From Mytilus edulis (Eukaryota): a stretch of DNA of 64,000 nucleotides. The position numbers were made by a program, and so were the translations under genes. The stretch's first letter is position 1; each line of letters starts with the position of its first letter. Shown here in pieces: positions 29,737 through 64,000 of the stretch. The notes under the pieces are model-generated. The model saw nothing but the letters and a program-made list of their open reading frames with translations, made no database searches and was not told where the DNA came from. The stretch lies in assembly GCF_963676685.1 (NCBI RefSeq), contig NC_092350.1, positions 10,416,001 to 10,480,000 on the forward strand, read 5' to 3'.

Positions 29737-31103
29737 ATGTATATACAACTCGTCTAAACATCAACCCAACAATGTTAGATCTGTAAATTTGCTTTCGCAA
29801 ATTTTTGGTTCTTCCCTCGCCGGGATTCGAACCCATGCTACTGTGATATCGTGACACCAAATCGCCTGCACTGCAGCCGTCCCGCTAGACCACACGACCA
29901 CCTGGGCTCTCAAAAAAAGAGCTTTCGGTGGGCATGTGTTACCTTTCCACGTCAGTTTTAATCTAGCGGCGTACTACAGTACATGATATATAAGGCATGA
30001 AGATGTTATTGTTACAGATCAGCTAAATTATCTATAGTAAAGGATCCTACAAATTAATGTAAGATACAGTCACAGAAAATAATTATATTCATAAGTACGT
30101 CTGAGTCAGTGACAACCCTACAACAGATGTATCCATCGGATCGCCATCAATGATGGTGATACATGGCTGTGTACATAATGTATATACAACTCGTCTAAAC
30201 ATCAACCCAACAATGTTAGATCTGTAAATTTGCTTTCGCAAATTTTTGGTTCTTCCCTCGCCGGGATTCGAACCCATGCTACTGTGATATCGTGACACCA
30301 AATCGCCTGCACTGCAGCCGTCCCGCTAGACCACACGACCACCTGGGCTCTCAAAAAAAGAGCTTTCGGTGGGCATGTGTTACCTTTCCACGTCAGTTTT
30401 AATCTAGCGGCGTACTACAGTACATGATATATAAGGCATGAAGATGTTATTGTTACAGATCAGCTAAATTATCTATAGTAAAGGATCCTACAAATTAATG
30501 TAAGATACAGTCACAGAAAATAATTATATTCATAAGTACGTCTGAGTCAGTGACAACCCTACAACAGATGTATCCATCGGATCGCCATCAATGATGGTGA
30601 TACATGGCTGTGTACATAATGTATATACAACTCGTCTAAACATCAACCCAACAATGTTAGATCTGTAAATTTGCTTTCGCAAATTTTTGGTTCTTCCCTC
30701 GCCGGGATTCGAACCCATGCTACTGTGATATCGTGACACCAAATCGCCTGCACTGCAGCCGTCCCGCTAGACCACACGACCACCTGGGCTCTCAAAAAAA
30801 GAGCTTTCGGTGGGCATGTGTTACCTTTCCACGTCAGTTTTAATCTAGCGGCGTACTACAGTACATGATATATAAGGCATGAAGATGTTATTGTTACAGA
30901 TCAGCTAAATTATCTATAGTAAAGGATCCTACAAATTAATGTAAGATACAGTCACAGAAAATAATTATATTCATAAGTACGTCTGAGTCAGTGACAACCC
31001 TACAACAGATGTATCCATCGGATCGCCATCAATGATGGTGATACATGGCTGTGTACATAATGTATATACAACTCGTCTAAACATCAACCCAACAATGTTA
31101 GAT
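29737..31103 (-). repeat. 441-bp tandem repeat (3 apparently identical copies plus ~44 bp) with a tRNA-derived Pol III head
   Basis: The same register recurs at 29741, 30182, 30623 and 31064. In copy 1: A box TGGTCGTGTGG (29900-29890), B box GGTTCGAATCC (29833-29823), T7 run just upstream. Flanked by TA-rich tracts. Confidence 0.9.
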
Positions 31104-34100
31104 ATGTATATATAGACGTATTACACATATCCTGATATACTCGTACGATTCGTTGTTTCGGGAGACCGAACAATGTTTGCTAATTGTGATTACTAATTAG
31201 ATTTTGCAAGGTAGACAAATTGGGTACTGATTATTTTGTGCATGATTTACTAGCGCCTTTTCTTCTTGCTTAATTGCATTCATTGGTAATAAGATTTTAA
31301 AATGTTATTATTATTATAAGAGACACTACGCGTTTTACCTTAATTAAACCTGTGTAAAATACGTTCCGATGTTTCTATTTAGAATTATACCTGTTTTAAC
31401 ATAAAAGAAAACTTTAACTTACTTAATTTTCAGAAATATGAACAATTGAACAAATATTTAATAAATCCAAGTTTTAAAGAAAATGTGAAATACTAAGAAT
31501 TGGCATTCATAAACCAATTAAATGACGTTTTCCTATCTTACAAAACACATTTACATGACTATCTACAAACTCTGGATGTTCGTATTAAGTGCGAGGTTTG
31601 GCTAGTCATAAAACCGGGTCCCCCCCCCCCCCCCATTTATTTCTTAAAATGTCCTATACCAAATCAGTTATGTGGCAGTTTTTATCAAATAGTTCGTTTC
31701 CATGTATGTTGCATTTGCGTTTGTTTTTAATGCACTTTAGTGTTTCTGTTGTTCTGTTGTTTTCCTCTTACAGTTGATGTGTTTCCCTCGGTTTAATTTG
31801 TTACCCGACTTTATTTTCTCTTAATCGATTTACGACTTTTGAACAGGGTATACTACTGTTGCCTTTATTTAATATATCATCATGTATTAGTTTGTTAGTT
31901 AACTAGTTATTAGTTTATTAGTTATTTGTTTTTCACTTTATGAATAGTAAGTAGTAAATATAAATTAATAAATCACAAAAAATATAAGCTATGATTCGAT
32001 TGATTACTACATATTTTATTTTCCCATATTCATTTTATCATCCAAATACAATTAGACATAAAATGTGTAAACCAAAGTAAATTTTATTTTCAAAGTGGAA
32101 TTGTGTCAGGTGTTCTTACGGCAAAAACCTACTGTAAGTTCTTGATTAATCTTAGATATGATATATTAAGTCCAATTGTACCATATCAATCGCCAAAAAT
32201 AGTGTTGGATATTAATTTGAGTCTTTACTGATATATTACTTTTAATTTCTCTTTCCAACTGGTTGTGTACTGGTTTTAGAAGAGAACTCTTTTATAGGTA
32301 ATCTATGACTTTTGGGGGAATTTATTCATCCAAAACATAATGTTATTTGTTAAGATAACACTATTGTCTACCTTTTTTTTTTTACAGGGAATGTTTTTAT
32401 GCCAGTTACACAGAATAACTCATTTCCGTTTTTCTTGTTTTGCTTTCCCAATCTTGTCTCCTTGCATTTCTATAATCATTTCATTATTTGCGTGCCCAAC
32501 CGTTTTTATTTGATTGTGTAATCATTTCCTTTCCTTTTTTTTTCTTTTTAACTTTGCCAACATTTTCTTTTTGCCTCTCCAACTTTTTCTCCCTGCTGGC
32601 CCATTTCTTGATTCTTTCACACCTTTTTCTTCAAAATAAAATAAAAGTTGTTTGTAGTTGTTTTACATTCCTCTTGTCCTGGATTCCAATTGCTTTTGAC
32701 AAAATATATCATCACGCTTTTGTTATTAACTTTTTTATTTTAAAACCTTTGTTCATTTTCTCTAATGAACTTAATCATTAATTCTTCTTACTTAAGATAG
32801 TGGACTTGTTATCCAGTTTTATATTAAAAAAAAATCTATGATAACTTGCATCAATATCTTATTGAAGGGAAATAGCCTAATGGTTCGGCTTAAAATTCGT
32901 ACTTGCTCATGCAGTATTCCTTTGTAGATATTTTTCCGTTCCCATATTTTTGTTTGTTTGAGTGATTTATTTTTTTTATTTGTAAATTGCATATCGATAT
33001 ATGTGTTCTAATTTGTAGTTTAGTTCTTTTTATGTACATGTGTACCATGTGTTTTGTGTATCTTATAAAACATTGAATTAAATTAAATTGATTCAAATAC
33101 TCTTTTACATTAAATGCACCAAATATCATAATTGTTTTCTTGTGTAAGCTTCAAGTGGTGCACTGTTACCTTCATTGTAACAAAGTCCAATTATCAGTTT
33201 GCAATCAGATGTTTTGATAAAGAAAGATCCGCTTCTCGTGCTTGTCATACCACACTATTAAGAAGTTTACCGGGAAATACATTTTCTCCGAGTTCACTTA
33301 AAAAACGTCATAATTATACGTCTTATACTAATGGCCTGAAATCAAATCTCTAATGTTACTGTAATCAATGCGCATTTGTATTTTCTTGATAGACCTTTTC
33401 AGTTTAAAGACCAAGTCTGGAGATTATTATCAAAGGAATAAAATATTTCTGAAATTAACCTCTTTAAAACAATACTAAAATCATTCAAATGCCGATATCG
33501 TTATTATTTTTACGTTGTTGTGCCATAAATAAACATTGGGAAGTTTATCATAATCTATTTATAGCTACAATGCAACTTTACACATTGCTAGTCAATATAG
33601 CAGATTATAACAGATTCAGTGTATTGGGCCTGATTGTCAACTTCAACTAACAAAATTATACAGAATGTTACTATTTTCATTTGTGATAGTGTGTATTGTC
33701 TATCTTACACTCGCAGCGACTGACAGATCATCAAAAGGTGTGTATGTGTATTGTATATATATATGTTGACCCACTTTATAACCGTAACTTGTTATTTTCA
33801 ATCTTTCAACTTGTTATACATCTTTCAAATGAGGCAAATTTTTTTTGGTTATTTACTAATGAAAATTTGTCTGTACTTAAATATTTAGGGAGCTATATTA
33901 TTATACATGTCTAGATGATCTAGATGTTAGACGAAATGTTAATTGATGTATGTAATAACAATTATTGATAATTGTAATGATTTTATGGTTCTGATCCTGC
34001 CTGAAATTAAATGTATGTGATTTTTATAGAATGAAGATAATAACATTTGTCTGAACTTTTCTTAATGTTTCATTTTATTATATAAAAATGTTTTTTCTGT

Positions 34101-49044: not shown

Positions 49045-49428
<384 letters not shown>

Positions 49429-49475
49429 TTAATACGTTGTTTGACTTGAACAAGTATAAACAATGATTATCCCAA

Positions 49476-50101
49476 TATATATGTGGTGGTGTTTAACGAC
49501 CTTGACTGGCCTTTCAGCCCTCGCACGGTCGGCTCGGTGCCCGAAGGCGTTTGGTGAGCTTTAAATATTCTGGAGCCATGGGTCAGGAACAAGTAGTGGA
49601 GGTCGCAATATGGAGGCCGCCATCTTGGTTTTGGTGAGTTGTTTTTGGTTTTTGACTATTTTGTTGTTTATTCTTCACTAACGGCTGCTTTCAGGGCCAG
49701 TTTGGTCAGCTTGGCAGCCCGCTAGCCTCGATGATGGAGTACTGGTAGATGATCTCGGACGTAGTTCGAAAGATGACAGGAAGCATTATCAGGACCAAAG
49801 CCGTGAGGCAGTGAAATGAAGGTCGTATCACCCAACAGCCTAGGATACAGCCCTCGGACGTTAATCGGCATAACACTCCCCATAATACAATGGTTTTGGA
49901 GTGCATGTTAACGCGGGTACGCCAACTACTACGTCTATCTGTACGGCATGGATCGGTTTCTGTCATCTTAAGTAGTAAGTCGTTGATATCTAACTGTAAA
50001 CCCTCATCGAAGATAGCGGGTAAAGGAGAGCTGGCCCAGCACGTCCGTTCAGCTGTAATGACTGAGACGTGACTGGATTGTGTTTTGAATGGTAATGGAT
50101 G
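49476..50101 (-). mobile_element. Non-autonomous ~620-bp retroelement, copy U1 (subfamily A)
   Basis: Flanked by GATTATCCCAA (49465-49475, 50102-50112); 3' stem-loop plus TTAAAC tail. Confidence 0.85.
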
Positions 50102-50112
50102 GATTATCCCAA

Positions 50113-50165
50113 TATGTGGTGGTGTTTAACGACCTTGACTGGCCTTTCAGCCCTCGCACGGTCGG
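50113..50165 (-). mobile_element. ~55-bp mini-element S1 (3' stem-loop only)
   Basis: Matches the U1 3' end; flanked by ATTATCCCAA. Confidence 0.8.
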
Positions 50166-50176
50166 TATTATCCCAA

Positions 50177-50780
50177 TATGTGGTGGTGTTTAACGACCTT
50201 GACTGGCTATACAGCCCTCGCACGGTCGGCTCGGTGCCCGAAGACGATTGGTGAGCGTTTGAATAATTTCTGCCGTGGGTCAGGAACAAGAAGTAAGGAC
50301 GCCGAATGGAGGCCGCCATCTTGGTTTTGGTGAGTTGATTTTGGTTTGTTTACTATTTTGGATTTTACTTCTTAACAACGGCTGCTTTCAGGGCCAGTTT
50401 GGTCAGCTTGGCAGCCCGCTAGCCTCGATGATGGAGTACAGGTAGATGATCTCGGACGTAGTTCGAAAGATGACAGGAAGCATTATCAAGACCAAAGCCG
50501 TGAGGCAATGAAATGAAGGTCATATCACCCAACAGCCTAGGATACAGCCCTCGGACGTTAATCGGCATAACACTCCCCATAATACAATGGTTTTGGAGTG
50601 CATGTTAACGCGGGTACGCCAACTACTACGTCTATCTGTACGGCATGGATTGGTTTCTGTCATCTTAAGTAGTAAGTCGTTGATATCTAACTGTAAACCC
50701 TCATCGAAGATATCGGGTAAAGGAGAGCTGGCCCAGCACGTCCGTTCAGCTGTAATGACTGAGACGTGACTGAAAAAATT
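50177..50780 (-). mobile_element. Non-autonomous retroelement copy U2 (subfamily B-like)
   Basis: Flanked by GTATTATCCCAA (50165-50176, 50781-50792). Confidence 0.85.
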
Positions 50781-50792
50781 GTATTATCCCAA

Positions 50793-50848
50793 CAACAAAT
50801 GGAAGTTTTTAACGACCTTGACTGGCTATACAGCCCTTGCACGGTCGG
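50793..50848 (-). mobile_element. ~55-bp mini-element S2
   Basis: Tail matches U4; same 5' breakpoint as S1. Confidence 0.8.
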
Positions 50849-52812
50849 TATTATCCCAACTACTACTAAATAGAGTTTAATGGCGGCTACCCTTGCGGGT
50901 ATTGCGCCAGATTACCTTATATAAAAACATTTCAAGTAAATGTTTTAGAATTATCATTATTTAGGTATAAGCCTATATTATATATTCATATTATAGAAAT
51001 TTGTGAGTTTTTTTGTTTTTTTTCCCCTTAAATTTAATCTTATTTAAATCTGAACTATAGTGTTTATTTTAATTATCTTGATTATCTTTTGGTTAATTTA
51101 AAGTACGAAAAAGAAATATATGTGAACTTATTATTCCATCATTTGTAACTTAGCTTTCTTTGTTTATGAATATTAAATACATTGGTAAATAGGTGTGTTT
51201 GTTGTTTATACATGAAAAATGTAAGTATCTTATACTCTTTGATAGACATATCTGACTTTTACAAATATGCAAATCCTAGAAGGGGTCCGACATATTCCCG
51301 TACATGGTATATACATTAATACAATTATACCGCGGCTCGTACGTCCTTGGTAAACTGTGATTCTCTGTATATTGAATTTGACTAAAGATAGCACCCTCAC
51401 TTATAAAAGATTCTTGAACTTACGTTGTAGAATAAAAAAAATATATAATATATATATTACTGTGTATGTATAATTAGAATCTGTAATGTATTGTTATAAC
51501 ATATTTGTGTGTAATAAATTGCAAGTGTTGATATTGTGCAGTTATGTTCAGTATAGATACAAGAGAGTGCTATCTTGGTAGTACCTGATCTAGTGTACTA
51601 CTTCAAAAAATAAAAACTTTCGTAGAAGTTTTAGTGTATATTGTCAAATTCAACGGGGTTATGTTTCTTTTATTTAGAAATCATAAACTGATAAATGATA
51701 CCCTCCAGCTCTGTTACAACTTTTAAAAAGGCCAATATTTAGAAATGAAAAAACTAAAAAGAAAAGGTAAATAATATATTTCTACCAAATTATTTGTTTT
51801 TGGTGTCATCCGTTTAGACTGGAGTTGTTTCCCTTGCACTGTAAAGAAATAAATTGTAAATACCTGCAGCCGTTAAGCTACCACGTGGTAACCATGTGCT
51901 ACAGGCAGACAGGGCGAGAGGGCTGTAAACAAACAATTTCCAGTCTAAACGGATGAATTAGCAGCCGTGACTAAAAATGATAGACAATAATACCAATACA
52001 AGGTTAGTATTTACACGGTGCATTGTTTTTGGTCGTTGTAAAATATGCTGGTTGGTTCTAAAATCATCATATCACAAGGACCTGGGTTCTGGCAAGCCAG
52101 TGCCCTTAAAGAAAAATATCCCACAATAAGATAACTCATCTCGTCCGTCGACCCCATGTATAACCCTATCAATATTTTAGCTGCGGTGTCAATAGTTTAT
52201 CCATTGACAGCAGCTGAATCACATTCCTCATAGTGTTAGTTAGGTACTTATATATATACAATGTACATGCAGTTAATTCTTGTTGTGAGGTTTGTGTCCC
52301 CAATTTGATTTGGGATGGACCGACGAGAGAGTGCTTGTGATTGATGATTTCTGGGAGATATGTCAGACTCCTGTGGCTTGATATTTTACATATGATCTCA
52401 TGTATTTATCAGCAAGATGAGATTTATAATATTAAAAATCAACTGCTAATTATTTTAATCTAATTTATTTTCACTTTCTAACTTAGATTTTCTCTTATCT
52501 AGAGTTAATTTAATCGGTTGTTACAAATGTAATTAGTATTTTGAATATTTGAGATGCCTTGTCATACTTGTTAAAATCCATGGGTTGTTGTCCAGTGACT
52601 AATATTTCAAAGTTTTATTTTAGAAATAAGTAATTTTACTAGGCCTATAGTTTATGTCATTTTTCTTTTCCTATACTAATAATATCTGTAGGTTTTCTAA
52701 CCCCTACCAAAAATATCTTATTAAAATAATTATAAGCATGTTTTTACAAAATTTACACTAGAAACTAGAAATATATATTGAGGTTTTTTGTATTTTCTGA
52801 ATAATTTTACTT

Positions 52813-54561
52813 TTATCGCATACCCGTGTTTATTAAATAATCCCATATTGGGATAAGGGTCTGAGAATATCCTGAAAATAAATTTTTATACGAGAGATCT
52901 TTTACACCGGTTGATTCAAACTTTTCCATCATTTTATGTCTTTGTGGTATGTACTTATTACAGTTAAACAGGTAGTGTTGCATGTCGTCCACTACTAAAC
53001 ATGTGTCACACAGTTCACTATTACATTTACCCATTGTGTATTTGAATTTATTAGTGAATATATAACTTGATCTAAGTTTAAATAGAGTTCTTTCTCTTTC
53101 TCTTGTACTCTTTGGTATGGTAATACAAAAGTTAACATCTTTTTGAATAGCGTGTAGTTGTTTACTTTTAGTGTTGTTTTCCCAGTATTGTTGCCACATT
53201 TTTTTTAATAAATTTTTACATAAACATTTGATATCTTCTTTGTAAAGTGGTATACTAGTTATACATGTCTCTATTGATAGAGCCTTTTTAGCTGCTGTGT
53301 CTGCCATTTCATTACCACTTAAACCCACATGACTGGGTATCCATTCTAAAATTATATTCAAACCTAATTTGGACAGTTTACTGTATATATATTGGATGTC
53401 ATAAATTATTTGTGTTTTAACTTTAAATATACTTCCTGTAATAGCTTTTAGTGCTGACAGTGAATCTACAAATATTACAGTATTTTCTGGTTGAAATTCT
53501 TCTAACCAATATAAAGATAAAAGTATGGCTGTCAATTCACACATAAATATTGAAACATGATTTTGTAATTTAAAACCTTTTTTTACTTTAAGTTCTGGAA
53601 CGACAAAAGCACATGCATTTGTGTTGTTTTCTGGATTCTTAGATCCATCTGTATATATTTTTAAAAAATTACTATACTTGTTATCAATGAGGATATTTCC
53701 TTCACTTTTAATTAGGTGAGGACTATCCTTTTTAGTAATAATATTTGTAAGTTCCGTTTTGACCTGTGGTTTTAGAACATGCCATGGTGGGGTAGGGAAC
53801 TCTTTACATTTGTATACAGTATTAATATCTACATTATATTTATTCATAGTATCATGTGCAGTAACACAATATGGTTTTTGATTTTCTTTAATTTTTTCCT
53901 TATTAAATTCATATATAGCATTTTCTTGTAAACTTTTTATAGTTGGGTTTGTGTCATTTAGACTAAATATATTCAAAAAAGACTTAGTAATAAGACTTTT
54001 TCTTCTCAACCCATATGGGGGGTCACCAATTTCAGTCTGTAATCCACTTATACTGGCAGTTTTATGAGCACCTGCACATATCCTTAATGCTTGGGCTTGA
54101 ATACTATCTAGTTTTTTCTTGACAGAGTAGGAGGCTGAGTTATAAACCTCACAGCCATAATCTATCTTTGACCTTATCATTGATATATATATTGTTCTCA
54201 GGGTAGAACAATTTGCACCCCATTTAGTACCAGTTAATAATTTCATGCAGTTCAACACCCTTGAACATCTACTTTCTATATATTGTACATGTTTTAACCA
54301 TGTTAGTTTTGAATCGAAAATCATACCTAGAAACTTGACTTCTTTAACAAATGACAATATTGTTTCTCCAAGTTTAAGTTTAATACAAGGAGAACTACTC
54401 TTACTAAATATCATAGCTACCGTTTTTGTTTGTGATATTAGGAAACCCCATTTATCACACCAAGTATTAATTGTGTCTATATCCTCTTGCATTCTTTTTT
54501 GTAGATATTTAGAACTTTTTCCAGATAACCATATGGCACTGTCATCAGCAAATTGTGACAT
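52813..54561 (-). CDS. LINE ORF2 C-terminal part: RT (FADD), RNase H, CCHC
   Basis: FADD, YTDGS, CELTAI, VDSLSAL, WIPSHVGLSGNEMAD, CDTC..H..C. Confidence 0.92.
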   Translation of the reverse strand: MSQFADDSAIWLSGKSSKYLQKRMQEDIDTINTWCDKWGFLISQTKTVAMIFSKSSSPCIKLKLGETILSFVKEVKFLGMIFDSKLTWLKHVQYIESRCSRVLNCMKLLTGTKWGANCSTLRTIYISMIRSKIDYGCEVYNSASYSVKKKLDSIQAQALRICAGAHKTASISGLQTEIGDPPYGLRRKSLITKSFLNIFSLNDTNPTIKSLQENAIYEFNKEKIKENQKPYCVTAHDTMNKYNVDINTVYKCKEFPTPPWHVLKPQVKTELTNIITKKDSPHLIKSEGNILIDNKYSNFLKIYTDGSKNPENNTNACAFVVPELKVKKGFKLQNHVSIFMCELTAILLSLYWLEEFQPENTVIFVDSLSALKAITGSIFKVKTQIIYDIQYIYSKLSKLGLNIILEWIPSHVGLSGNEMADTAAKKALSIETCITSIPLYKEDIKCLCKNLLKKMWQQYWENNTKSKQLHAIQKDVNFCITIPKSTRERERTLFKLRSSYIFTNKFKYTMGKCNSELCDTCLVVDDMQHYLFNCNKYIPQRHKMMEKFESTGVKDLSYKNLFSGYSQTLIPIWDYLINTGMR

Positions 54562-54572
54562 AGCACAGTACT

Positions 54573-56630
54573 TTAAATTATTGGATATATATAATCATTC
54601 ACCATGATGTTAAATAGTGTAGGACTTATACAACTACCCTGTGGTGTACCATTCTGAATTATAAATATTTCAGAGTAAGTATTATTAACTTTAACTTGTA
54701 TAGTTCTGTCACTAAGAAAATCCTTTACCCATCCCAACATATTACCCCTTATACCTATTGAAGCCATTTTTATTAATAACCCATTTTTCCATAGCATATC
54801 AAATGCCTTTTGGAAATCTATAAATACACCAACTGTGAAATGTTTTTTGAGAAATGCTTTATGAATATCATTATCAATTCTAATTATTTGTTCCATAGTA
54901 TTTCTATTTTTCCTAAATCCACTTTGATTTGGTGTGTAGAAATTATTTTTTTCTAGATACCAACGTAGTCTATTATTAACCATTTTCTCCATAATTTTTA
55001 CAAAATTAGAAGTAAGGGCTATTGGTCTATATGACTGTGGGTCTGTGGGGTTTTTTCCAGGTTTAAGTACTGGTGATATAATGGAATGTTTCCATTCACT
55101 TGGAAGTTTTTGTAAAAACCAAACTCTATTGATAAAAAGTAATAACACAGACAGTGATTTGTCTGTAAATTGTTTGAACATAGAATACGTAATTTTATCT
55201 TTTCCAGGGGAGGTATCAGATGTATCACTGATAGCATCTTTTAATTCTTGCATAGTATATGGTTCATTATAACTATCAGAGTTATCCTTATAATAGTGTA
55301 ATAATTTACTGTACTCCTTTTGATCAATATCTTGTTTCTGATTTTTAAATTTTTCTGAGTAATTATGGTCACTACTGACTTGAGCATAATTTGTAGCAAG
55401 TATATCTGCTTTGTCTTGAGTAAATTCATATTTGGTATTATTATATAACAGGGTTGGTAAATTTAATTTTTTAAATGTTTTACCCAACATTGATTTTACT
55501 TTTTTCCATACATCTGATAATTTAGTATCATTATTGAGAGAGTTACAGTAGCTCTCCCAATACATAGCTTGTGCAGCTTTGATAGTTTTTCTGCACGTTC
55601 TTTCTTTTTCTCTATATATAGTGAAATCAATACCAAGACCTGAATGTTGGGCACGGTTTTTACAGGTGTTCCTTTCTTTAACACATTTAGTGCATTCAGG
55701 TGTCCACCATGGTACCTGTGGTTTTTTAGGTTTATTATTTTTTAATTTGACTGGGATGCACTCCCCAGCTATTTTGAGTATTTTGTTTGTTAGTCTTGAA
55801 CATGTTTCTTCTATATTGTCAGAAATCATGTCAGGACTCAAATGTTCATTACACTTGCTGGAGAATGCCTCCCAGTCTGCTTTCTTATAATTATATACAG
55901 ATTCAGTTTCATCAATTTGCATTTGTTTATGGCTAAAACTAATATTTACAACATGATGGTCACTGCCATAGGAACTAATGAGGTCAACTGACCATGTTAA
56001 TTTACTAGCTAAACTAGAATTACAAAAAGACAAATCAATAGGTGACAGTTCTAATGTACTGGGGTTACATCTTGTACCTGTACCATCATTAAGAAGTACT
56101 ATATCTTTATACTCAAGGAAAGAGAACAGCTCTCTTCCCTTAGTATCTATATTTTTACCGCCCCACATAGTGTGGTGGGCATTAAAGTCTCCACATAGTA
56201 TAAATTTTCCCTCTATTTGATCAAATATATTGTTATAATGGGGTAGTTTTGTATTTGATGCTGTGTCATAAAGATTGACCAGTGTAATATTATTATTATC
56301 AAAACTAAATTCAATACATGATATTTCTAAATCACTGTTAATATTCTTTTTCAGATATGGAAGATTTTCTCTGACATATATAGCTGTACCTCCATGTGAT
56401 TTGGTATTACGTACAGAAAAATCAGCTATTTTATAACCTATTACATGTGGATGATCTTGTTCGTTTTTACACCATGTTTCCTGGAAGCAAATAATATCAG
56501 GCTTCATTTGTGACATAGCTATATACGCCGCAGCATTGTTGTTAATGCCGCGACAGTTCCAATGAACAACACTGAACATTATGTTATATAATAATAAACA
56601 TGATAAATAAATAGTATAATTGATAGCCAT
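54573..56630 (-). CDS. LINE ORF2 N-terminal part: APE endonuclease and RT, frameshifted at ~54590
   Basis: WNCRG, FQETW, GDFNAH, SDH, YRPIALT, QSGFR, DFQKAFD, GTPQG. Confidence 0.92.
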   Translation of the reverse strand: MAINYTIYLSCLLLYNIMFSVVHWNCRGINNNAAAYIAMSQMKPDIICFQETWCKNEQDHPHVIGYKIADFSVRNTKSHGGTAIYVRENLPYLKKNINSDLEISCIEFSFDNNNITLVNLYDTASNTKLPHYNNIFDQIEGKFILCGDFNAHHTMWGGKNIDTKGRELFSFLEYKDIVLLNDGTGTRCNPSTLELSPIDLSFCNSSLASKLTWSVDLISSYGSDHHVVNISFSHKQMQIDETESVYNYKKADWEAFSSKCNEHLSPDMISDNIEETCSRLTNKILKIAGECIPVKLKNNKPKKPQVPWWTPECTKCVKERNTCKNRAQHSGLGIDFTIYREKERTCRKTIKAAQAMYWESYCNSLNNDTKLSDVWKKVKSMLGKTFKKLNLPTLLYNNTKYEFTQDKADILATNYAQVSSDHNYSEKFKNQKQDIDQKEYSKLLHYYKDNSDSYNEPYTMQELKDAISDTSDTSPGKDKITYSMFKQFTDKSLSVLLLFINRVWFLQKLPSEWKHSIISPVLKPGKNPTDPQSYRPIALTSNFVKIMEKMVNNRLRWYLEKNNFYTPNQSGFRKNRNTMEQIIRIDNDIHKAFLKKHFTVGVFIDFQKAFDMLWKNGLLIKMASIGIRGNMLGWVKDFLSDRTIQVKVNNTYSEIFIIQNGTPQGSCISPTLFNIMVNDYIYPII

Positions 56631-56675
56631 TTTTAATTGTATATTGTTAATACTTTATATTGGGCGATAAATGAA

Positions 56676-57914
56676 TTATATCATTTCAGTTGTAACTCTA
56701 CTAGCCATTTCCAAACCTAATGAGAGATCAAAATTTGACCCAAACATCTGTTTTACAACTATTCCTACAAAACCCATAATTGACTTTAAAGTAAAGTCTA
56801 TGGGTTTAGTAGGAGGGCTCATAGTCTGGTGCATGACAACACTAATTACAGTTACCAAGTCTTGTATGGTACATTTATCTTTTTTGGGTGGTACTGAGCT
56901 CTGATCTTTTGGGGTTTTGCTAGTTGATTTAGAGCTTTCTTTATGATGTTCATTGATTTTAAGCTGGTTTGTTGCTTGTTGTAGTGAAATATTTTTAGAT
57001 TTCACCAGCTTAAGGGCCATTTTTTGTTGGGTCCTTTGTGGACATTCTTTGTCATTAGACATATGTTTACCTTTACAGTTTACACATTTTAAATCTGTTG
57101 AGGTACATTGCTCGTTCTCATGTTCCTCTCCACATTTAATACATCTTTTTTTATTTCTACATTGGTTTGCCATATGCCCAAACCCCTGACATTTATAGCA
57201 TTGAATAGGTTTAGGTACAAATAATTTGGTATTATATGTTTTGTACCCAATATTGATTGTTGCTGGTAGCTGGGGTGTCTGAAAGAATAACTTTATGGAT
57301 CTAGATGGTTTTCTTTCACCGATTTGTTTGTCAAAGTAGGACATCCTTTGAATTTTACTAACTTTCTGGGCTTTAAGCACCGACACGATATCTTCGTCTT
57401 CAACGTTAATGTCTAGAGGCACGTTATAAATAACTCCTATTGATGAAGTTACAGATTTGGGCACACTTGTCCTAATCTGTAATTCACCAATGAGTTTGAC
57501 GCGTTTTAGCTGTTTCCACTGCGATTTGTCAATGCACTCTACTAGTATTTTCCCACTGTTAAGTGGTTTAATTCTTTTTGGGGTACCAACAGTCTCAAGG
57601 AGAATCTTTTGGATTTTTATCTGATTTTGGGTGCTAAGTTTAGTATTGGGATCAACACTCTGTAGGACTAGTAAATACTCATTACCTTTTACTGAGGGTG
57701 TATGGGGGAGAGGGGAAGGTGTATTAAGGAGGGTATTATCATTTAGGGGAGATGTACTTGCCATTCTTTTTCGTCTTTTCCTCTGTGTGGACCAGCCATG
57801 TTTTTCATATTCAGAGGATTCCATGTCTGTGGTATCAGTTTCATTGAGGGACTTATAAAATTCTTCCTCATCGAACTGACCAGAAATTGTTTTGTCCATA
57901 ATGTCGGACAACAA
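56676..57914 (-). CDS. LINE ORF1 gag-like protein with three zinc knuckles (first ATG at 57899)
   Basis: CYKCQGFGHMANQC, CIKCGEEHENEQC, CVNCKGKHMSNDKEC. Confidence 0.92.
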   Translation of the reverse strand: MLSDIMDKTISGQFDEEEFYKSLNETDTTDMESSEYEKHGWSTQRKRRKRMASTSPLNDNTLLNTPSPLPHTPSVKGNEYLLVLQSVDPNTKLSTQNQIKIQKILLETVGTPKRIKPLNSGKILVECIDKSQWKQLKRVKLIGELQIRTSVPKSVTSSIGVIYNVPLDINVEDEDIVSVLKAQKVSKIQRMSYFDKQIGERKPSRSIKLFFQTPQLPATINIGYKTYNTKLFVPKPIQCYKCQGFGHMANQCRNKKRCIKCGEEHENEQCTSTDLKCVNCKGKHMSNDKECPQRTQQKMALKLVKSKNISLQQATNQLKINEHHKESSKSTSKTPKDQSSVPPKKDKCTIQDLVTVISVVMHQTMSPPTKPIDFTLKSIMGFVGIVVKQMFGSNFDLSLGLEMASRVTTEMI

Positions 57915-58156
57915 AGAATATTGGTGAACACTTTTCAGTAGACAAGAAAAGTTGAGTATCTAACTATAATAATACTATAATAATACTGAATAAATTATTC
58001 AGATAGCAGACAATATCAATTATTTAATATTCTCAAAAAAATATCTGAAATATAAGACTATAAACACAAAATATAATGATATATTCTAATTCAGTGCAGT
58101 GCTACAAAAACACGACCGTGATGATCCGGGACTCACAACCCGAGGTATTATCCCAA

Positions 58157-59684
58157 ATATATGTGGTGGTGTTTAACGACCTTGACTGGCCTTTCAGCCC
58201 TCGCACGGTCGGCTCGGTGCCCGAAGGCGTTTGGTGAGCTTTAAATATTCTGGAGCCATGGGTCAGGAACAAGTAGTGGAGGTCGCAATATGGAGGCCGC
58301 CATCTTGGTTTTGGTGAGTTGTTTTTGGTTTTTGACTATTTTGTTGTTTATTCTTCACTAACGGCTGCTTTCAGGGCCAGTTTGGTCAGCTTGGCAGCCC
58401 GCTAGCCTCGATGATGGAGTACTGGTAGATGATCTCGGACGTAGTTCGAAAGATGACAGGAAGCATTATCAGGACCAAAGCCGTGAGGCAGTGAAATGAA
58501 GGTCGTATCACCCAACAGCCTAGGATACAGCCCTCGGACGTTAATCGGCATAACACTCCCCATAATACAATGGTTTTGGAGTGCATGTTAACGCGGGTAC
58601 GCCAACCGCTACGTCTATATGTACGGCATGGATCGGTTTCTGTCATCTTAAGTAGGTGTAAGACATAATAATGTCCTTATAAAATAATGTCCATTGCCAT
58701 GGAATGATGTCCCTCAAAAGGACAGATTTTTACTGCTAACTATATGAAATAGTGTCCACTCACAGGACAAATTTTCATAGTAGTTGCTGTTAAATTGTAA
58801 GGGAAGTAATACAAAGGTCATTACAAAGTTTTATTATACTTGAATTTTAATTAAAATATGAAGGATTGATGAGAAATTGATCAATGTACAAATGTAAACA
58901 AATAAATAATGGATGGAAGTGAATATAGAGAAATTTAAGTTCCTAGAAATTCCCAGCAAATGGAAATGACAATGAAAGAATAACAATAAGAAGGAAGTGT
59001 AAAATCAAATATGAAGAACTTTATAATATGTATTATGTCAGATAACTTGCGGAAGGCAATAGAAAATAAATAATGTCCATTGCCATAAAATATTGTCTCC
59101 ATGAAATATGGTCCATCTGCAGAACAAATTTTCGTAGTGAATGTTATTCAATTGTGTACTCAAAGGAAAATAAAATGGAACAGCATCTAACATGTATATA
59201 ATTATATTAAAAAATATAGATATGAAGATAAGGATGGTAGGAGTGCCAATGAGACAATTTTTATGTCAAAGTAACAATTAATTCAAGTTCGTAATTAAAG
59301 TTAAAATGCGTCCAGTAATAAAAAGGCAATGGATATCATTTAATACTTTAATCATATAAAAAAATGACCTGGCGGACACAATGTCCTGTGAAATAAAGGT
59401 CCATGTGGACATATTATGGTAGCGAAAAATGTCTATGTTCATGGACACTTTTTCATACCTGAGGACATGTTTTCATAGGAAATTGTGTCCAGGACACATT
59501 TAAATAAGTAAATATTGTCAAAATGTGTCCGGTGGACATTTTTTCATGGAGGACATTATTAAATCCTACATAGTAAGTCGTTGATATCTAACTGTAAACC
59601 CTCATCGAGGATAGCGGGTAAAGGAGAGCTGGCCCAGCACGTCCGTTCAGCTGTAATGACTGAGACGTGACTGATGAAATGAAT
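58157..59684 (-). mobile_element. Non-autonomous retroelement copy U3 (subfamily A), interrupted by a MITE
   Basis: Near-identical to U1; flanked by TATTATCCCAA (58146-58156, 59685-59695). Confidence 0.85.
58657..59570. mobile_element. 914-bp non-autonomous DNA transposon with TGT..ACA termini
   Basis: 21-bp imperfect TIR tgtaagacataataatgtcct / aggacattattaaatcctaca; many subterminal tgtcc/ggaca motifs; tagg/tagt flanks. Confidence 0.8.
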
Positions 59685-59695
59685 TATTATCCCAA

Positions 59696-60322
59696 CAACA
59701 AATGGAAGTGTTTAACGACCTTGACTGGCTATACAGCCCTCGCACGGTCGGCTCGGTGCCCGAAGGCGATTGATGAGCATTTAAATATTTTCTGCCGTGG
59801 GTCAGGAACAGGTAGTAAGGACGCCGAATGGAGGCCGCCATCTTGGTTTTGGTGAGTTGATTTTGGTTTTTTACTATTTTGATGTTATTCTTCACAACGG
59901 CTGCTTTCAGGGCCAATTTGGTCAGCTTGGCAGCCCGCTAACCTCGATGATGGAGTACTGGTAGATGAATCGTGGACGTAGTTTTAAAGATGACAGGAAG
60001 CGTTATCAGGACCAAAGCCGTGAGGCAGTAAAATGAAGGTCGTATCACCCAACAGCCTAGGATACAGCCCTCGGACGTTAATCGGCATAACACTCCCCAT
60101 GATACAATGGTTTTGGAGTGCATGTTAACGCGGGAACGCCAACACCTACGTCTATCTGTACGGCATGGATTGGTTTCTGTCATCTTAAGAAGTAAGTCGT
60201 TGATCATCTAACAATAAACCCTCATCGAAGATAGCGGGTAAAGGAGAGCTGGCCCAGCACGTCCGTTCAGCTGTAATGACTGAGACGTGACTGAATGGAT
60301 TGAATCCAAAATGGATTGAATG
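59696..60322 (-). mobile_element. Non-autonomous retroelement copy U4 (subfamily B), promoter-proximal
   Basis: Flanked by TATTATCCCAA (59685-59695, 60323-60333). Confidence 0.85.
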
Positions 60323-60555
60323 TATTATCCCAAGAGGTGGTAGTTTACTATTTATACCCGCAAAACGGATTGAAAGATGTTTCAGTTCTAAACCAATCAA
60401 ATCATCGCTTCTTCCAGGTAGTTAGGTTGAATGTTAGAAGGTGCTCTCTCCGAAGTTCGCGTTAAGTAAAAACTTTCAATCCGTTTTGCCGAGTATAAAT
60501 AGAAATTTTTATTAACGGCCATCATTCACTGATTACATTTCAGAGAGTATACATC
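60323..60555. promoter_or_regulatory. Bidirectional H2A/H2B-type histone promoter
   Basis: Divergent TATAAATA boxes (60356-60349 minus; 60494-60501 plus), each preceded by CTTTCAATCCGTTTTGC. CCAAT at 60393. ATCATTC cap motif at 60521-60527, about 30 nt from the plus-strand TATA. Confidence 0.8.
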
Positions 60556-60930
60556 TGTCTGTATTTAACTAATCACCACAAATAGTTAAACATGTCAGGA
60601 ATCTAATCACCACATTTAGTTAAACATGTCAGGCATGGATTAGATAATAAAATGTCGAATCAGAAAATGTATTGACTAATGTGAAAATCTGTATATATGT
60701 TTGTTCCGTCTGTGTATATGTTCTTCATGTGTGTATTTATAAACTGTTTTGTGTGATCAACGAAATTTGACGTTCACAAAGAAAAAGGCGGGGAAGAGAA
60801 ACAAAGCATTTACTGACTTAAGTATAAGCAACCCACTTGCACAAGCACTACTTTTTTCCTTTCCCCACCTCACCTTTCTATTATCCATATGTGTTTAACT
60901 TTTTGTTCATTATAACAATATAAAACAAAT

Positions 60931-62226
60931 ATGAATGTGATATATTCAAGAGCCGCCTCAGATGGCGAAGAAGGGATAAAAATAGGGAAAATGATCCCAA
61001 GGCCCTGTACCCTGCTAATACAATCTGATTACGAATCACATAAAATCACATCGGCAGAAATGCTACATTACATTAATAGCGAGATAAATCTTGAAATATC
61101 AGCCCTCATATGCTATTTTCAATCAACTGGTATAAACAAGTTCTCGGCCTCTTTTAGAGATGAACATGCAAAAGACATCTTCCAAGATACATTTAGCGAT
61201 AAAATAGAGATTCAAGATATTACATTTAATGTAGAACAAGCAGAACCCCTACAATGGGGGAAAAAAAAAAAAACTATTGACATTACTTTGTTTGGTATAC
61301 CATATGAATTAAAACCAGAGTACATAAGAAACAAAATGCAAAAATATGTAGATATAAGGGAAATAAAATATAACAACTACAAAGATTTCCCCGATATATC
61401 CAGTGGGGTCGTTACTGTTGTAGCAAACAGTATTAAAGAGGATATACCCAAAAAGATATATATAAAAGGGCAACAGATATCTACTCGATATGAAGGCCAG
61501 CCACACGGCAAAAAGTGTTTTAATTGCCAAGCATATGGACATATCTCAAAAGATTGTCCAGAGCCACAAGGTAGAATCTGGGGTTCAGCAAGAACCCACC
61601 CTACTAGAACAAGAACAAATAGTAGTGAGTCCCTATCCACACAAGACTCACAAGAATCCCAAGATTCACAAGAAACCACAATTGTAAACTCAGGGGAAAT
61701 AGAGGTAGAAATCTACCATGAAAAGGAAACATTAGAAATAACCCAAACTAACACTTCCGATTCCACCCCCTTAGAAGAAACTCTAAACGAATCAAAGAGC
61801 AGCAATGAGTCAATTGATCATGAAATCATAATCACACAAGCTCTTGAAGTCAAATTTGATAAACCTCAGTCAGAGACTGAAAAAATAAATGAAAAACAAA
61901 AAGGTAAAAAAAAGCCAAACCAAACTGATTACAATGATCTGATGGACGATTTAACAGAGATATTGGGCTCAGTTTCTGAGTCAGAGCCCGAAAATAATGA
62001 AACAGAAGAACAGCAAATAGAAAATAAAGAGTCGAATGCCAAATCTGGAGCCTCAGTGGCTCAAGGAAAAGGTACGACCCAAACCAAAAAAGAAAAAGTC
62101 CTAACAGACAAAGAAAAAAAGAGAGCAAGAACAGAAAGACAAAGAATCGAAAAAAGGAAAAATCTAAGTGATAGCGAAAATGAAGTAGAAAAAAGGAAGC
62201 CAGTGGCAAAGAAACAGATAAAATAA
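60931..62226 (+). CDS. L1/Tx1-type LINE ORF1 with a single CCHC knuckle
   Basis: TLFGIPYEL..IPKKIYIKG..RYEGQP..CFNCQAYGHISKDC and a charged C-terminus. Confidence 0.85.
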   Translation: MNVIYSRAASDGEEGIKIGKMIPRPCTLLIQSDYESHKITSAEMLHYINSEINLEISALICYFQSTGINKFSASFRDEHAKDIFQDTFSDKIEIQDITFNVEQAEPLQWGKKKKTIDITLFGIPYELKPEYIRNKMQKYVDIREIKYNNYKDFPDISSGVVTVVANSIKEDIPKKIYIKGQQISTRYEGQPHGKKCFNCQAYGHISKDCPEPQGRIWGSARTHPTRTRTNSSESLSTQDSQESQDSQETTIVNSGEIEVEIYHEKETLEITQTNTSDSTPLEETLNESKSSNESIDHEIIITQALEVKFDKPQSETEKINEKQKGKKKPNQTDYNDLMDDLTEILGSVSESEPENNETEEQQIENKESNAKSGASVAQGKGTTQTKKEKVLTDKEKKRARTERQRIEKRKNLSDSENEVEKRKPVAKKQIK

Positions 62227-62359
62227 AACAATGGTCATAAGATAAAACTAGATTTAAATTAAAATTAAAGAAAGACAAAACCTATTATATTGTATATTTT
62301 ATTATTTATTTATGATTAGTATCTTCACATTACTTCTATACTTTCTTTTACTAACTCAC

Positions 62360-64000
62360 ATGAGCACACTTCATATTATTTCACAAAATATAAGGAAAAA
62401 TATAAATACAAAGTATAAAGATGTTATCAACAGTTACCAAGATGCAAATATCATATGTCTACAAGAAACAGGGGTTTTAAAAAGATCAACCCAAGTTGAC
62501 ATTGAAGCCACTACAAATTTTAAAATTTACAGTTCCGATGGAGAAAATAGGGCAAGGGGTGTATGTATATTAATAGCAAAAGATGCAAAAGAAATACTTC
62601 AAAAACAGGTTCCAGCGACGCTAAAAGGAAATTTCATCCATATTGAATTTAAATTAGAAAGTAAAAAATATCAACTGCTAAATATATATAGCCCAGAGAA
62701 TACAACAAGACCACAAACAGAATTTTACGATCAATTAAATAAATATGTTGAACTGATAAATGTGAAAACAGACGTAGTAATTTTTGGAGGGGACTTTAAC
62801 CTGATAGCATCAGAAATAGATTCAAAAACAGGAATAATTAAAACAGGTAGAAGGACTTTAGATTTATTTAACAGTATAATTCACAAACTAAATATAAAGG
62901 ATACTTACAGATATAGAAATAAAAATAAAAGAGTATACTCATGGGCAAATTTCGATAACAGTTCAGCAACAAGAATAGACAGAATTTATCTATCTAAACA
63001 TATCTGCAATAAAATAAAAGACACCATAAATACACCATTTACAAGATCAGACCATAAAGGATATAAATTAAGAATTTTAATGGGCCATATAAAATGGGGA
63101 ACAGGATTCTGGAAGCTAAACGAATCATTATTAAAACAAAAGAAGTATACAGAACTGGTAAGAAATTTTTGGAATTCATGGGAAAAGGAGAAATATAAAA
63201 TGAATATCTTAGATTGGTGGGAAAAAGGGAAAAAATCAATAAAGGATATAACCATAAACTATAGCAAGGTAATGGCAACCAAAGAAAAATACAAATATAA
63301 GGGCTTGATACAAGAGCTAGAAGAAGAGGAAAATAAGGATACAAATGATATATCTAATGACAGAATAAATAAAATAAAAAAAGAAATAGAAACATTAGAC
63401 GATAATAGGAAAAAAGGAGTTATAATAAGATCAAGGGAGGAATATTATAATGGAGATCTAGAAAATATAGAAATTTTTGAATTAGCTGAAGAAAAAAGGG
63501 GCATAAAAAAAGAAATAAGAGAACTTTATGACAAAAATGGGATATTAAGGGAAAACAAAGAAGAAATAATAAACGTGGTTAGAGACTTTTATGAAGGACT
63601 ATATAGTAGCCAAAACATAGAAAACGGAAAAATTAAAGACTATTTGGAAGGGGTCAAAATTAATAAATTAGAGGAAGCAGATTGGATACATTTGAACCCA
63701 ATCATGACAAACGAAGAATGTTTTAAAAATACAAAAGACTTCCAAAATAATAAAACACCAGGAATAGATGGTCTAGGGAAATCATTCTATGTCGAATTTT
63801 GGGATATTATAGGCGAGGATTTGACAGAAGTAATAAATAATATTTACTTAACAGGGGAAATGACGGAATCTATGAAAACCGGCATAATTACTCTGAGTTA
63901 TAAAAATAAAGGAGATCCTAAAGAATTGAAGCAATGGAGACCCATAAGTTTATTGTGTTTTGACTATAAAATTATAACAAAGACCCTAACAAAGAAAATG
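62360..64000 (+). CDS. L1/Tx1-type LINE ORF2 (APE endonuclease and start of RT), open to the window edge and absent from the ORF track
   Basis: Hand translation of motifs: MSTLHIISQNIR, CLQET, GGDFN, RIDRIY, SDH, GFWKLN, KTPGIDG, FWD, WRPISLLCFDYKII; start and end are in the same frame. Confidence 0.9.
   Translation, partial: MSTLHIISQNIRKNINTKYKDVINSYQDANIICLQETGVLKRSTQVDIEATTNFKIYSSDGENRARGVCILIAKDAKEILQKQVPATLKGNFIHIEFKLESKKYQLLNIYSPENTTRPQTEFYDQLNKYVELINVKTDVVIFGGDFNLIASEIDSKTGIIKTGRRTLDLFNSIIHKLNIKDTYRYRNKNKRVYSWANFDNSSATRIDRIYLSKHICNKIKDTINTPFTRSDHKGYKLRILMGHIKWGTGFWKLNESLLKQKKYTELVRNFWNSWEKEKYKMNILDWWEKGKKSIKDITINYSKVMATKEKYKYKGLIQELEEEENKDTNDISNDRINKIKKEIETLDDNRKKGVIIRSREEYYNGDLENIEIFELAEEKRGIKKEIRELYDKNGILRENKEEIINVVRDFYEGLYSSQNIENGKIKDYLEGVKINKLEEADWIHLNPIMTNEECFKNTKDFQNNKTPGIDGLGKSFYVEFWDIIGEDLTEVINNIYLTGEMTESMKTGIITLSYKNKGDPKELKQWRPISLLCFDYKIITKTLTKKM

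Follow-up and report, generated by a model that had tools for sequence, protein, structure and literature searches.

The insert stack at the histone H2A promoter

The window, by which the whole analysed stretch of 64,000 nt of Mytilus edulis DNA is meant (G000:C7:10416001-10480000, within a 1.37-Gb genome), ends in a histone unit whose H3 and H2A genes both lie on the minus strand. In this unit 10,858 nt separate the H2A TATA box and the ATG, and they are made up of four copies of a non-coding element (U), two tail fragments and one LINE. The features, all on the minus strand, are the following.

49045..49422, minus strand: histone H2A ORF, parted from its own TATA box by the stack
49466..60333, minus strand: stack of eight copies of one 10-nt target duplication with seven inserts between them
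49466, 50103, 50167, 50783, 50850, 58147, 59686, 60324, minus strand: starts of the target duplications
49476..50075, minus strand: U copy, subfamily UA, with head at 50075 and DPE-like motif at 50047-50040
49559-49532 and 49531-49497, minus strand: upstream hairpin and terminal stem of the UA copy
50113..50165, minus strand: tail-only insert of U type, beginning at the foot of the terminal stem
50177..50772, minus strand: U copy, subfamily UB
50793..50848, minus strand: tail-only insert with diagnostic letters of LINE family K, beginning at the foot of the terminal stem
50860..58143, minus strand: LINE copy of family A (I group)
50860..50909, minus strand: 3' end of A, with outer stem and inner GNRA hairpin (50909-50881), TTAAAC (50880-50875) and a (TAG)n tail
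56630-52813, minus strand: ORF2 of the A copy, APE-RT-RNase H (Pfam), with a frame break near 54570
57899-56676, minus strand: ORF1 of the A copy, with zinc knuckle
58111..58118, minus strand: DPE-like CGGTCGTG of A, GGWCG at +29 from the CATT start of the family
58157..59673, minus strand: U copy with a 0.9-kb insert (inverted ends) at 58657-59562
59696..60293, minus strand: U copy closest to the TATA box
60349..60356, minus strand: TATA box of the H2A gene, 23 nt ahead of the first target duplication

In all 11 further histone units that were retrieved, out of 40 scored and 169 candidates, the stack site is empty, and the target sequence, there single-copy, lies 23 nt after the TATA box. The K-diagnostic letters of the fragment at 50793..50848 indicate that K RNA was copied into the stack site, and hence that K acted here.

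Further inserts and repeats are found in the window. The 0.9-kb insert inside one U copy has imperfect inverted ends of ~20 nt and an apparent 3-nt duplication, and probably represents a DNA transposon of the non-autonomous kind. Directly before the H2B start codon, in the same divergent H2A/H2B promoter and with a short duplication, lies an L1/Tx1-like LINE of ~6 kb with a poly(A) tail (60560-64000, plus strand, and locus L398); this position is empty in other histone units. Exact 441-nt tandem repeats, with three full units, occupy 29737-31111.

The non-coding retroposon U

U is a 590-nt retroposon flanked by target-site duplications (TSDs) and devoid of coding capacity. The genome contains 890 candidates, many of them full length, 99-100% identical and situated on unrelated contigs, as well as 150 exact U heads; each copy carries its own TSD, mostly of 10-13 nt and variable in size, and ends in short tandem repeats. 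U is a young, non-autonomous retroposon moved by a LINE, and histone-specific targeting is ruled out by its dispersal and its unrelated TSDs.

In agreement with the original prediction, U is free of Pol III signals, in that neither Pol III box (A or B) nor any match to a tRNA or to Rfam was found in it; a search for ribozymes and known RNAs likewise gave no Rfam match at E 1. The prediction had also pointed to DPE-like motifs near the 5' ends of the window LINE and of U. Both are present (CGGTCGTG at 58118-58111 and CGGACGTG, for example at 50047-50040), and the offsets assigned to them differ between LINE and U only because the window LINE copy lacks its first bases. With A counted from the CATT start of its family, GGWCG begins at +29 in both elements; the classic DPE position is +28. 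The exact +29 motif is absent from families B, D and K. A full U is predicted to be a Pol II transcript, started either by its Inr/DPE-like head or by a host TATA box. One raw RNA run covers U 130-260 deep, almost wholly on the sense strand, and its reads extend into the flanks at both ends with no sharp start, so that they may represent host read-through.

Ahead of the head, full U copies have a private patch made up of CATTC/CAATCC-like units, with a median length of 15 nt in 28 copies. The 71 tail-only inserts are without it (0-9 nt), and a similar 5' patch is seen in one full K copy. About 130 nt before its end U contains the word CAAGATGGCGGC (49616-49627 in the window, and three other U copies), which we take to be a YY1-type motif. 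The head of U shares with A only the CAKT start and the +29 motif. It had no match in the 20 fetched LINE loci, and none of 30 sampled heads (of the 150, two broken ones being set aside) was seen to lead into a LINE. That U is an internally deleted K or A is ruled out; its match to K does not go beyond the last 45 nt, and its head matches neither.

The probable LINE partner of U

The window LINE has a 3' UTR of 1.9 kb, and its 3' end folds as had been drawn: TGGCG...CGCCA reaches -16.1 kcal/mol (z -3.4), with 1 of 200 shuffles as good. Among the 74 TTAAAC hexamers of the window a stem of such a kind stands directly ahead of six, all belonging to U or the LINE. The fold of the A tail is supported by covariation across five related LINE families, in whose 11 tails 98.2% of pairs are kept and 4 of 10 pairs have changed on both sides. 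None of 500 shuffles reached the covariation score and slid controls drop to 36-61% paired, although the shuffle test is inflated by relatedness and 81 of the 500 shuffles matched the count of changed pairs taken by itself.

For the tail of U the prediction was right in part. The outer stem CGACC/GGTCG followed by TTAAA occurs at 6 places in the window (z -1.6 to -2.7 when taken alone), but the proposed inner GGCTG/CAGTC hairpin is 1.7-1.8 kcal/mol worse than the 4-bp stem preferred by RNAfold, GGCT-tetraloop-RGCC. The common TTAAAC end is seen in the window LINE and U, whereas K and many U copies terminate in TTAAAA.

Twenty loci were fetched from related LINE families, and two K copies among them end in the tail of U. 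The last 45 nt of U are identical to K at 39-42 of 45 positions and to A at 13 of 45. The search for a LINE whose ends match those of U thus led to K, which matches the 3' end but not the head. K is a TSD-flanked I-group LINE of 7.3 kb that encodes APE-RT-RNase H, with intact ORFs in the copy at L138. The I-group ORF2 domains APE, RT and RNase H are present in both A and K (Pfam), the ORF1 zinc knuckle was found in A, and ORF1 of K has no Pfam match. K and A are 34.5% identical in ORF2, and no other family exceeded 36% to K among 132 scored matches; the RT tree was made only from families of this genome. The 3' UTR of K opens with five tandem, GC-richer units of ~60 nt (L138:6440-7000).

U and K stand in tandem with one common TSD at L146, L147, L159 and L167, and they have in common the TSD length, the TATA spacing, the 5' patch and the truncation point. 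Both carry a second hairpin directly upstream of the shared stem, with a 4-bp outer stem and a 3-bp inner stem that abut the terminal stem with no linker. The sequences of this hairpin differ and its loop is UUCG in U and GNRA in K; MAFFT did not register it, so the likeness rests on single-sequence folds rather than on a pair count. Likeness in structure only does therefore exist, but it links U with K.

The original prediction held that U was mobilised by the window LINE or a relative through structural mimicry. U is indeed non-autonomous, and very probably K, a relative, is its mover; the window LINE, for all its similar fold and its use of the same site, is likely not the main mover of U. 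A link to the partner by structure instead of sequence is not confirmed, the tail of U being shared with K at the level of sequence. That A itself moves U in trans through a fold with no sequence match would account for the outer stem, the inner tetraloop hairpin, TTAAA, the +29 motif and the one stack TSD common to both, and the covariation of the A-clade fold indicates that structure is what is conserved. It is nevertheless very improbable: the tail sequence of U is carried by K, the invariant GGCGCAA...AG.CG core kept in A-clade tails is missing from U, the truncation point and strong TATA spacing of U are those of K and are lacking or weak in A, and the K-type fragment in the stack places an active K at this very site. 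Judging from the sequences, A may occasionally cross-use U.

A fixed truncation point

In the genome there are 1569 exact matches to the tail 19-mer, and only 52 K copies extend beyond the junction of the two hairpins. A sample of 50 tails (30 from the top of the list plus 20 others on contig 1, leaving out loci already taken) contained 43 tail-only inserts, 35 of which begin 38-44 nt from the end, besides 4 full and 3 partial copies of U. The 5' ends pile up at the foot of the stem, the junction being the stop point in 39 of 46 independent tail-bearing inserts once duplicates are removed. Families A, D and F have AT-rich sequence upstream, and 2 of their 59 copies are tail-only. We infer that the stop at the hairpin junction reflects either an enzyme stop or a cut in the RNA.

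The abundance of the short inserts invites the view that they form a minimal SINE which propagates itself, with transcription from the TATA box ahead of each copy. They constitute most of the 1569 tail matches, share one start point and often lie behind a TATA box (34 of 71), and in 68 of 90 cases, counted where G was excluded, a non-parental A precedes the stem. The six commonest tail-only haplotypes, however, all occur in longer K or U copies and match K and each U subfamily, so that tail-only inserts arise repeatedly from their parents, and the extra A fits slippage on the CCGA repeat of the stem. A tail-only lineage of its own is thus unsupported, and the minimal SINE is an improbable explanation. 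As a pair, U and K would provide a natural map of reverse transcriptase stop positions.

Target sites at a fixed distance behind a TATA box

The discovery set consisted of 72 independent U/K sites from 99 TSD calls; seven calls belonged to A, and 20 were dropped as array junctions, long TSDs or duplicates. TATAWA peaks at 24-21 nt before the TSD in this set, and with TATAWA starting 25-20 nt before the TSD as the criterion it occurs at 21 of 72 sites against 1.7 expected. The criterion was fixed before validation on 60 new loci, of which 37 were usable (22 had no clean TSD and one was a duplicate); 13 of the 37 carried TATAWA against 0.56 expected, with a background of ~2%. Over the 109 U/K sites the orientation is strongly biased (TATAAA 19 versus TTTATA 1), and 49 sites have at most one mismatch to TATAWAWR against 5.7 expected, the other 60 having at least two. 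The spacing recurs at both full K copies and in 5 of 15 additional full-length U sites, the TSD of one of them being doubtful.

The rule extends to related families. TATA spacing was found at 8 of 12 sites of families D, F and B and at 0 of 10 of the control family N (p 0.005 and 0.002), TSDs having been obtained at 8 D/F loci out of 30 and at 10 N loci out of 20, with two N calls that look wrong. Family A shows weak spacing (3 of 13, none perfect, p 0.03), yet it sits in the stack. One TATA box contained in three copies of a repeat has received U, F and D at the identical base behind it, and stacks with a single TSD also occur at L059 and L065, where D or F is combined with A. Family N, an RNase H-bearing LINE of 6.2 kb with numerous intact copies, is strongly concentrated, among the matches listed, on contig 11 and in one section of contig 8 (G000 C11, C8:78-80 Mb; L346-L364).

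Signs of real gene promoters at the targets are weak, and only that of H2A is a proven gene promoter. Inr-like YCAKT occurs at 5 of 34 TATA sites (background 0-3), and CpG and CCAAT show no rise at the target sites; enrichment of Inr or CpG is thus weak or nil. Targeting to Pol III genes is ruled out by the lack of any tRNA at 60 insertion loci and of any Rfam RNA at 20. A, D and K inserts also lie 25-29 nt behind a common GGTCCGCGTT-containing motif (L131, L058, L033, L239, L264), at loci where a TATA box is present in the K cases and absent in the A and D cases; this motif may be the sign of a TATA-less form of that target.

Proposed mechanism

The excess of U/K sites 21-24 nt behind a TATA box, in the sense orientation, is likely due to a LINE complex positioned by TBP or the pre-initiation complex. 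We consider it probable that U is copied by the ORF2 protein of K and that the TATA spacing arises through positioning by TBP or the Pol II pre-initiation complex. The ORF2 protein of K would bind K or U RNA at its terminal stem-loop and prime on the short repeat behind it by target-primed reverse transcription. The first nick would fall ~23 nt after the T of the TATA box and the second at ~34 nt, i.e. ~11 nt further; as the distance from TATA box to start is near 30 nt, such nicks would bracket the start site. Most cDNAs would end where the second hairpin abuts the terminal stem, giving the tail-only inserts of ~55 nt. Each insertion leaves the TATA box in place, so that later insertions could strike the same position and the TSD would recur from one stacked insert to the next; repeated rounds at a single open break would give the same pattern.

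The same partnership of U and K is compatible with a LINE protein that finds the site on its own, by recognising a bendable, TA-rich and TATA-like stretch which lies two helical turns upstream of the nick. The host factor would then play no part and promoters would be struck incidentally. Upstream signatures in the Ingi clade have been interpreted as endonuclease binding sites in the available text of PMC3820030, most U/K sites have no Inr, CpG or CCAAT signal, and the A+T content over the 72 discovery sites is 78-93% in the stretch 22-17 nt ahead of the TSD. Against direct reading stand the TBP consensus and polarity of the motif and the spread of only 4 nt in a spacing common to families that are just 35% identical in ORF2. 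Guidance by the host therefore remains the probable reading of the two, and direct recognition of the TATA word a rather doubtful one. More tentatively, an RNase H-bearing LINE lineage may be tethered to TBP-bound Pol II core promoters, nick the two strands at the edges of the open start-site bubble, land behind the TATA box in the orientation of the gene, and borrow promoters in this way.

Relation to known retroposons

By analogy, U works like the LINE-promoter (LP) SINEs of gastropods and bivalves, for which the accessible part of Matetovici et al. 2016 (PMC4758252) gives no identified partner LINE and reports a head resembling Nimb-17_LMi. U has the TSDs, the short tandem repeat tail and the LINE-shared tail of LP-SINEs and perhaps their LINE-type 5' end, lacks a tRNA, 5S or 7SL head as they do, and is, like them, a candidate for Pol II transcription. 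It differs from them, as far as PMC4758252 describes them, in that its partner is found in the genome, its head matches none of the LINEs compared, and a TATA-spaced target and a fixed truncation point are seen. Motifs of U are absent from three of the four supplements of PMC4758252, and likewise from all 8 supplement files of PMC11481361; either element may be catalogued in 21 of the 33 files of PMC10294476, in one of the four of PMC4758252, or in Repbase.

The non-autonomous retroposons RIME, NARTc and TSIDER1 of the Ingi clade share a 5' signature with their partner, and, like U, they combine I-group machinery and a near-fixed TSD length with an upstream target signature common to element and partner; U differs in having its 3' end in common with the partner, and in the available text the Ingi motif is not described as a TATA box (PMC3820030). 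Bipartite elements require both ends from one LINE, according to the accessible portion of PMC5786205, whereas the 5' and 3' ends of U do not come from the same LINE and the match to K is confined to the last 45 nt, which sets U apart from the RIME/NARTc type. Nimb-dependent tRNA SINEs of bivalves are homologous to an I-superfamily LINE over 35-61 bp at the 3' end, comparable to the 45 nt of U, but U has neither their tRNA head nor their Pol III boxes (PMC11481361, in part).

For targeting, the closest parallels in the available text of PMC4600332 and PMC5391098 are Ty3, Tj1 and TRE5-A, which like U/K insert at a fixed distance from the transcription start and form tandems at one target; an orientation bias is also seen in Tj1 and TRE5-A. 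Contact with TBP is reported there for Ty3 integrase (with Brf1) and for TRE5-A ORF1. These elements target Pol III genes, whereas the proven target of U/K is a Pol II histone promoter (PMC4600332, PMC5391098). The literature searched, which comprised few subscription journals and excluded Repbase, yielded no TATA-spaced I-group LINE.

Implications

Apart from R1 and Tx1, LINEs of the APE type are generally regarded as having little insertion specificity. A strand-specific, fixed TATA spacing, common to 35%-identical families and a SINE, would be a new targeting rule, and it is testable with the intact element at L138. The U/K pair names the kind of partner that the LP-SINE paper, in its accessible part, lacked (PMC4758252). 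Insertion severs genes from their TATA box, as at H2A, and may hand new copies a promoter. If host-guided targeting is true, it would be a Pol II counterpart, in an animal, of the targeting of Ty3 and TRE5, and a LINE lineage, a Pol II SINE and their 55-nt fragments would together map promoters across the genome.
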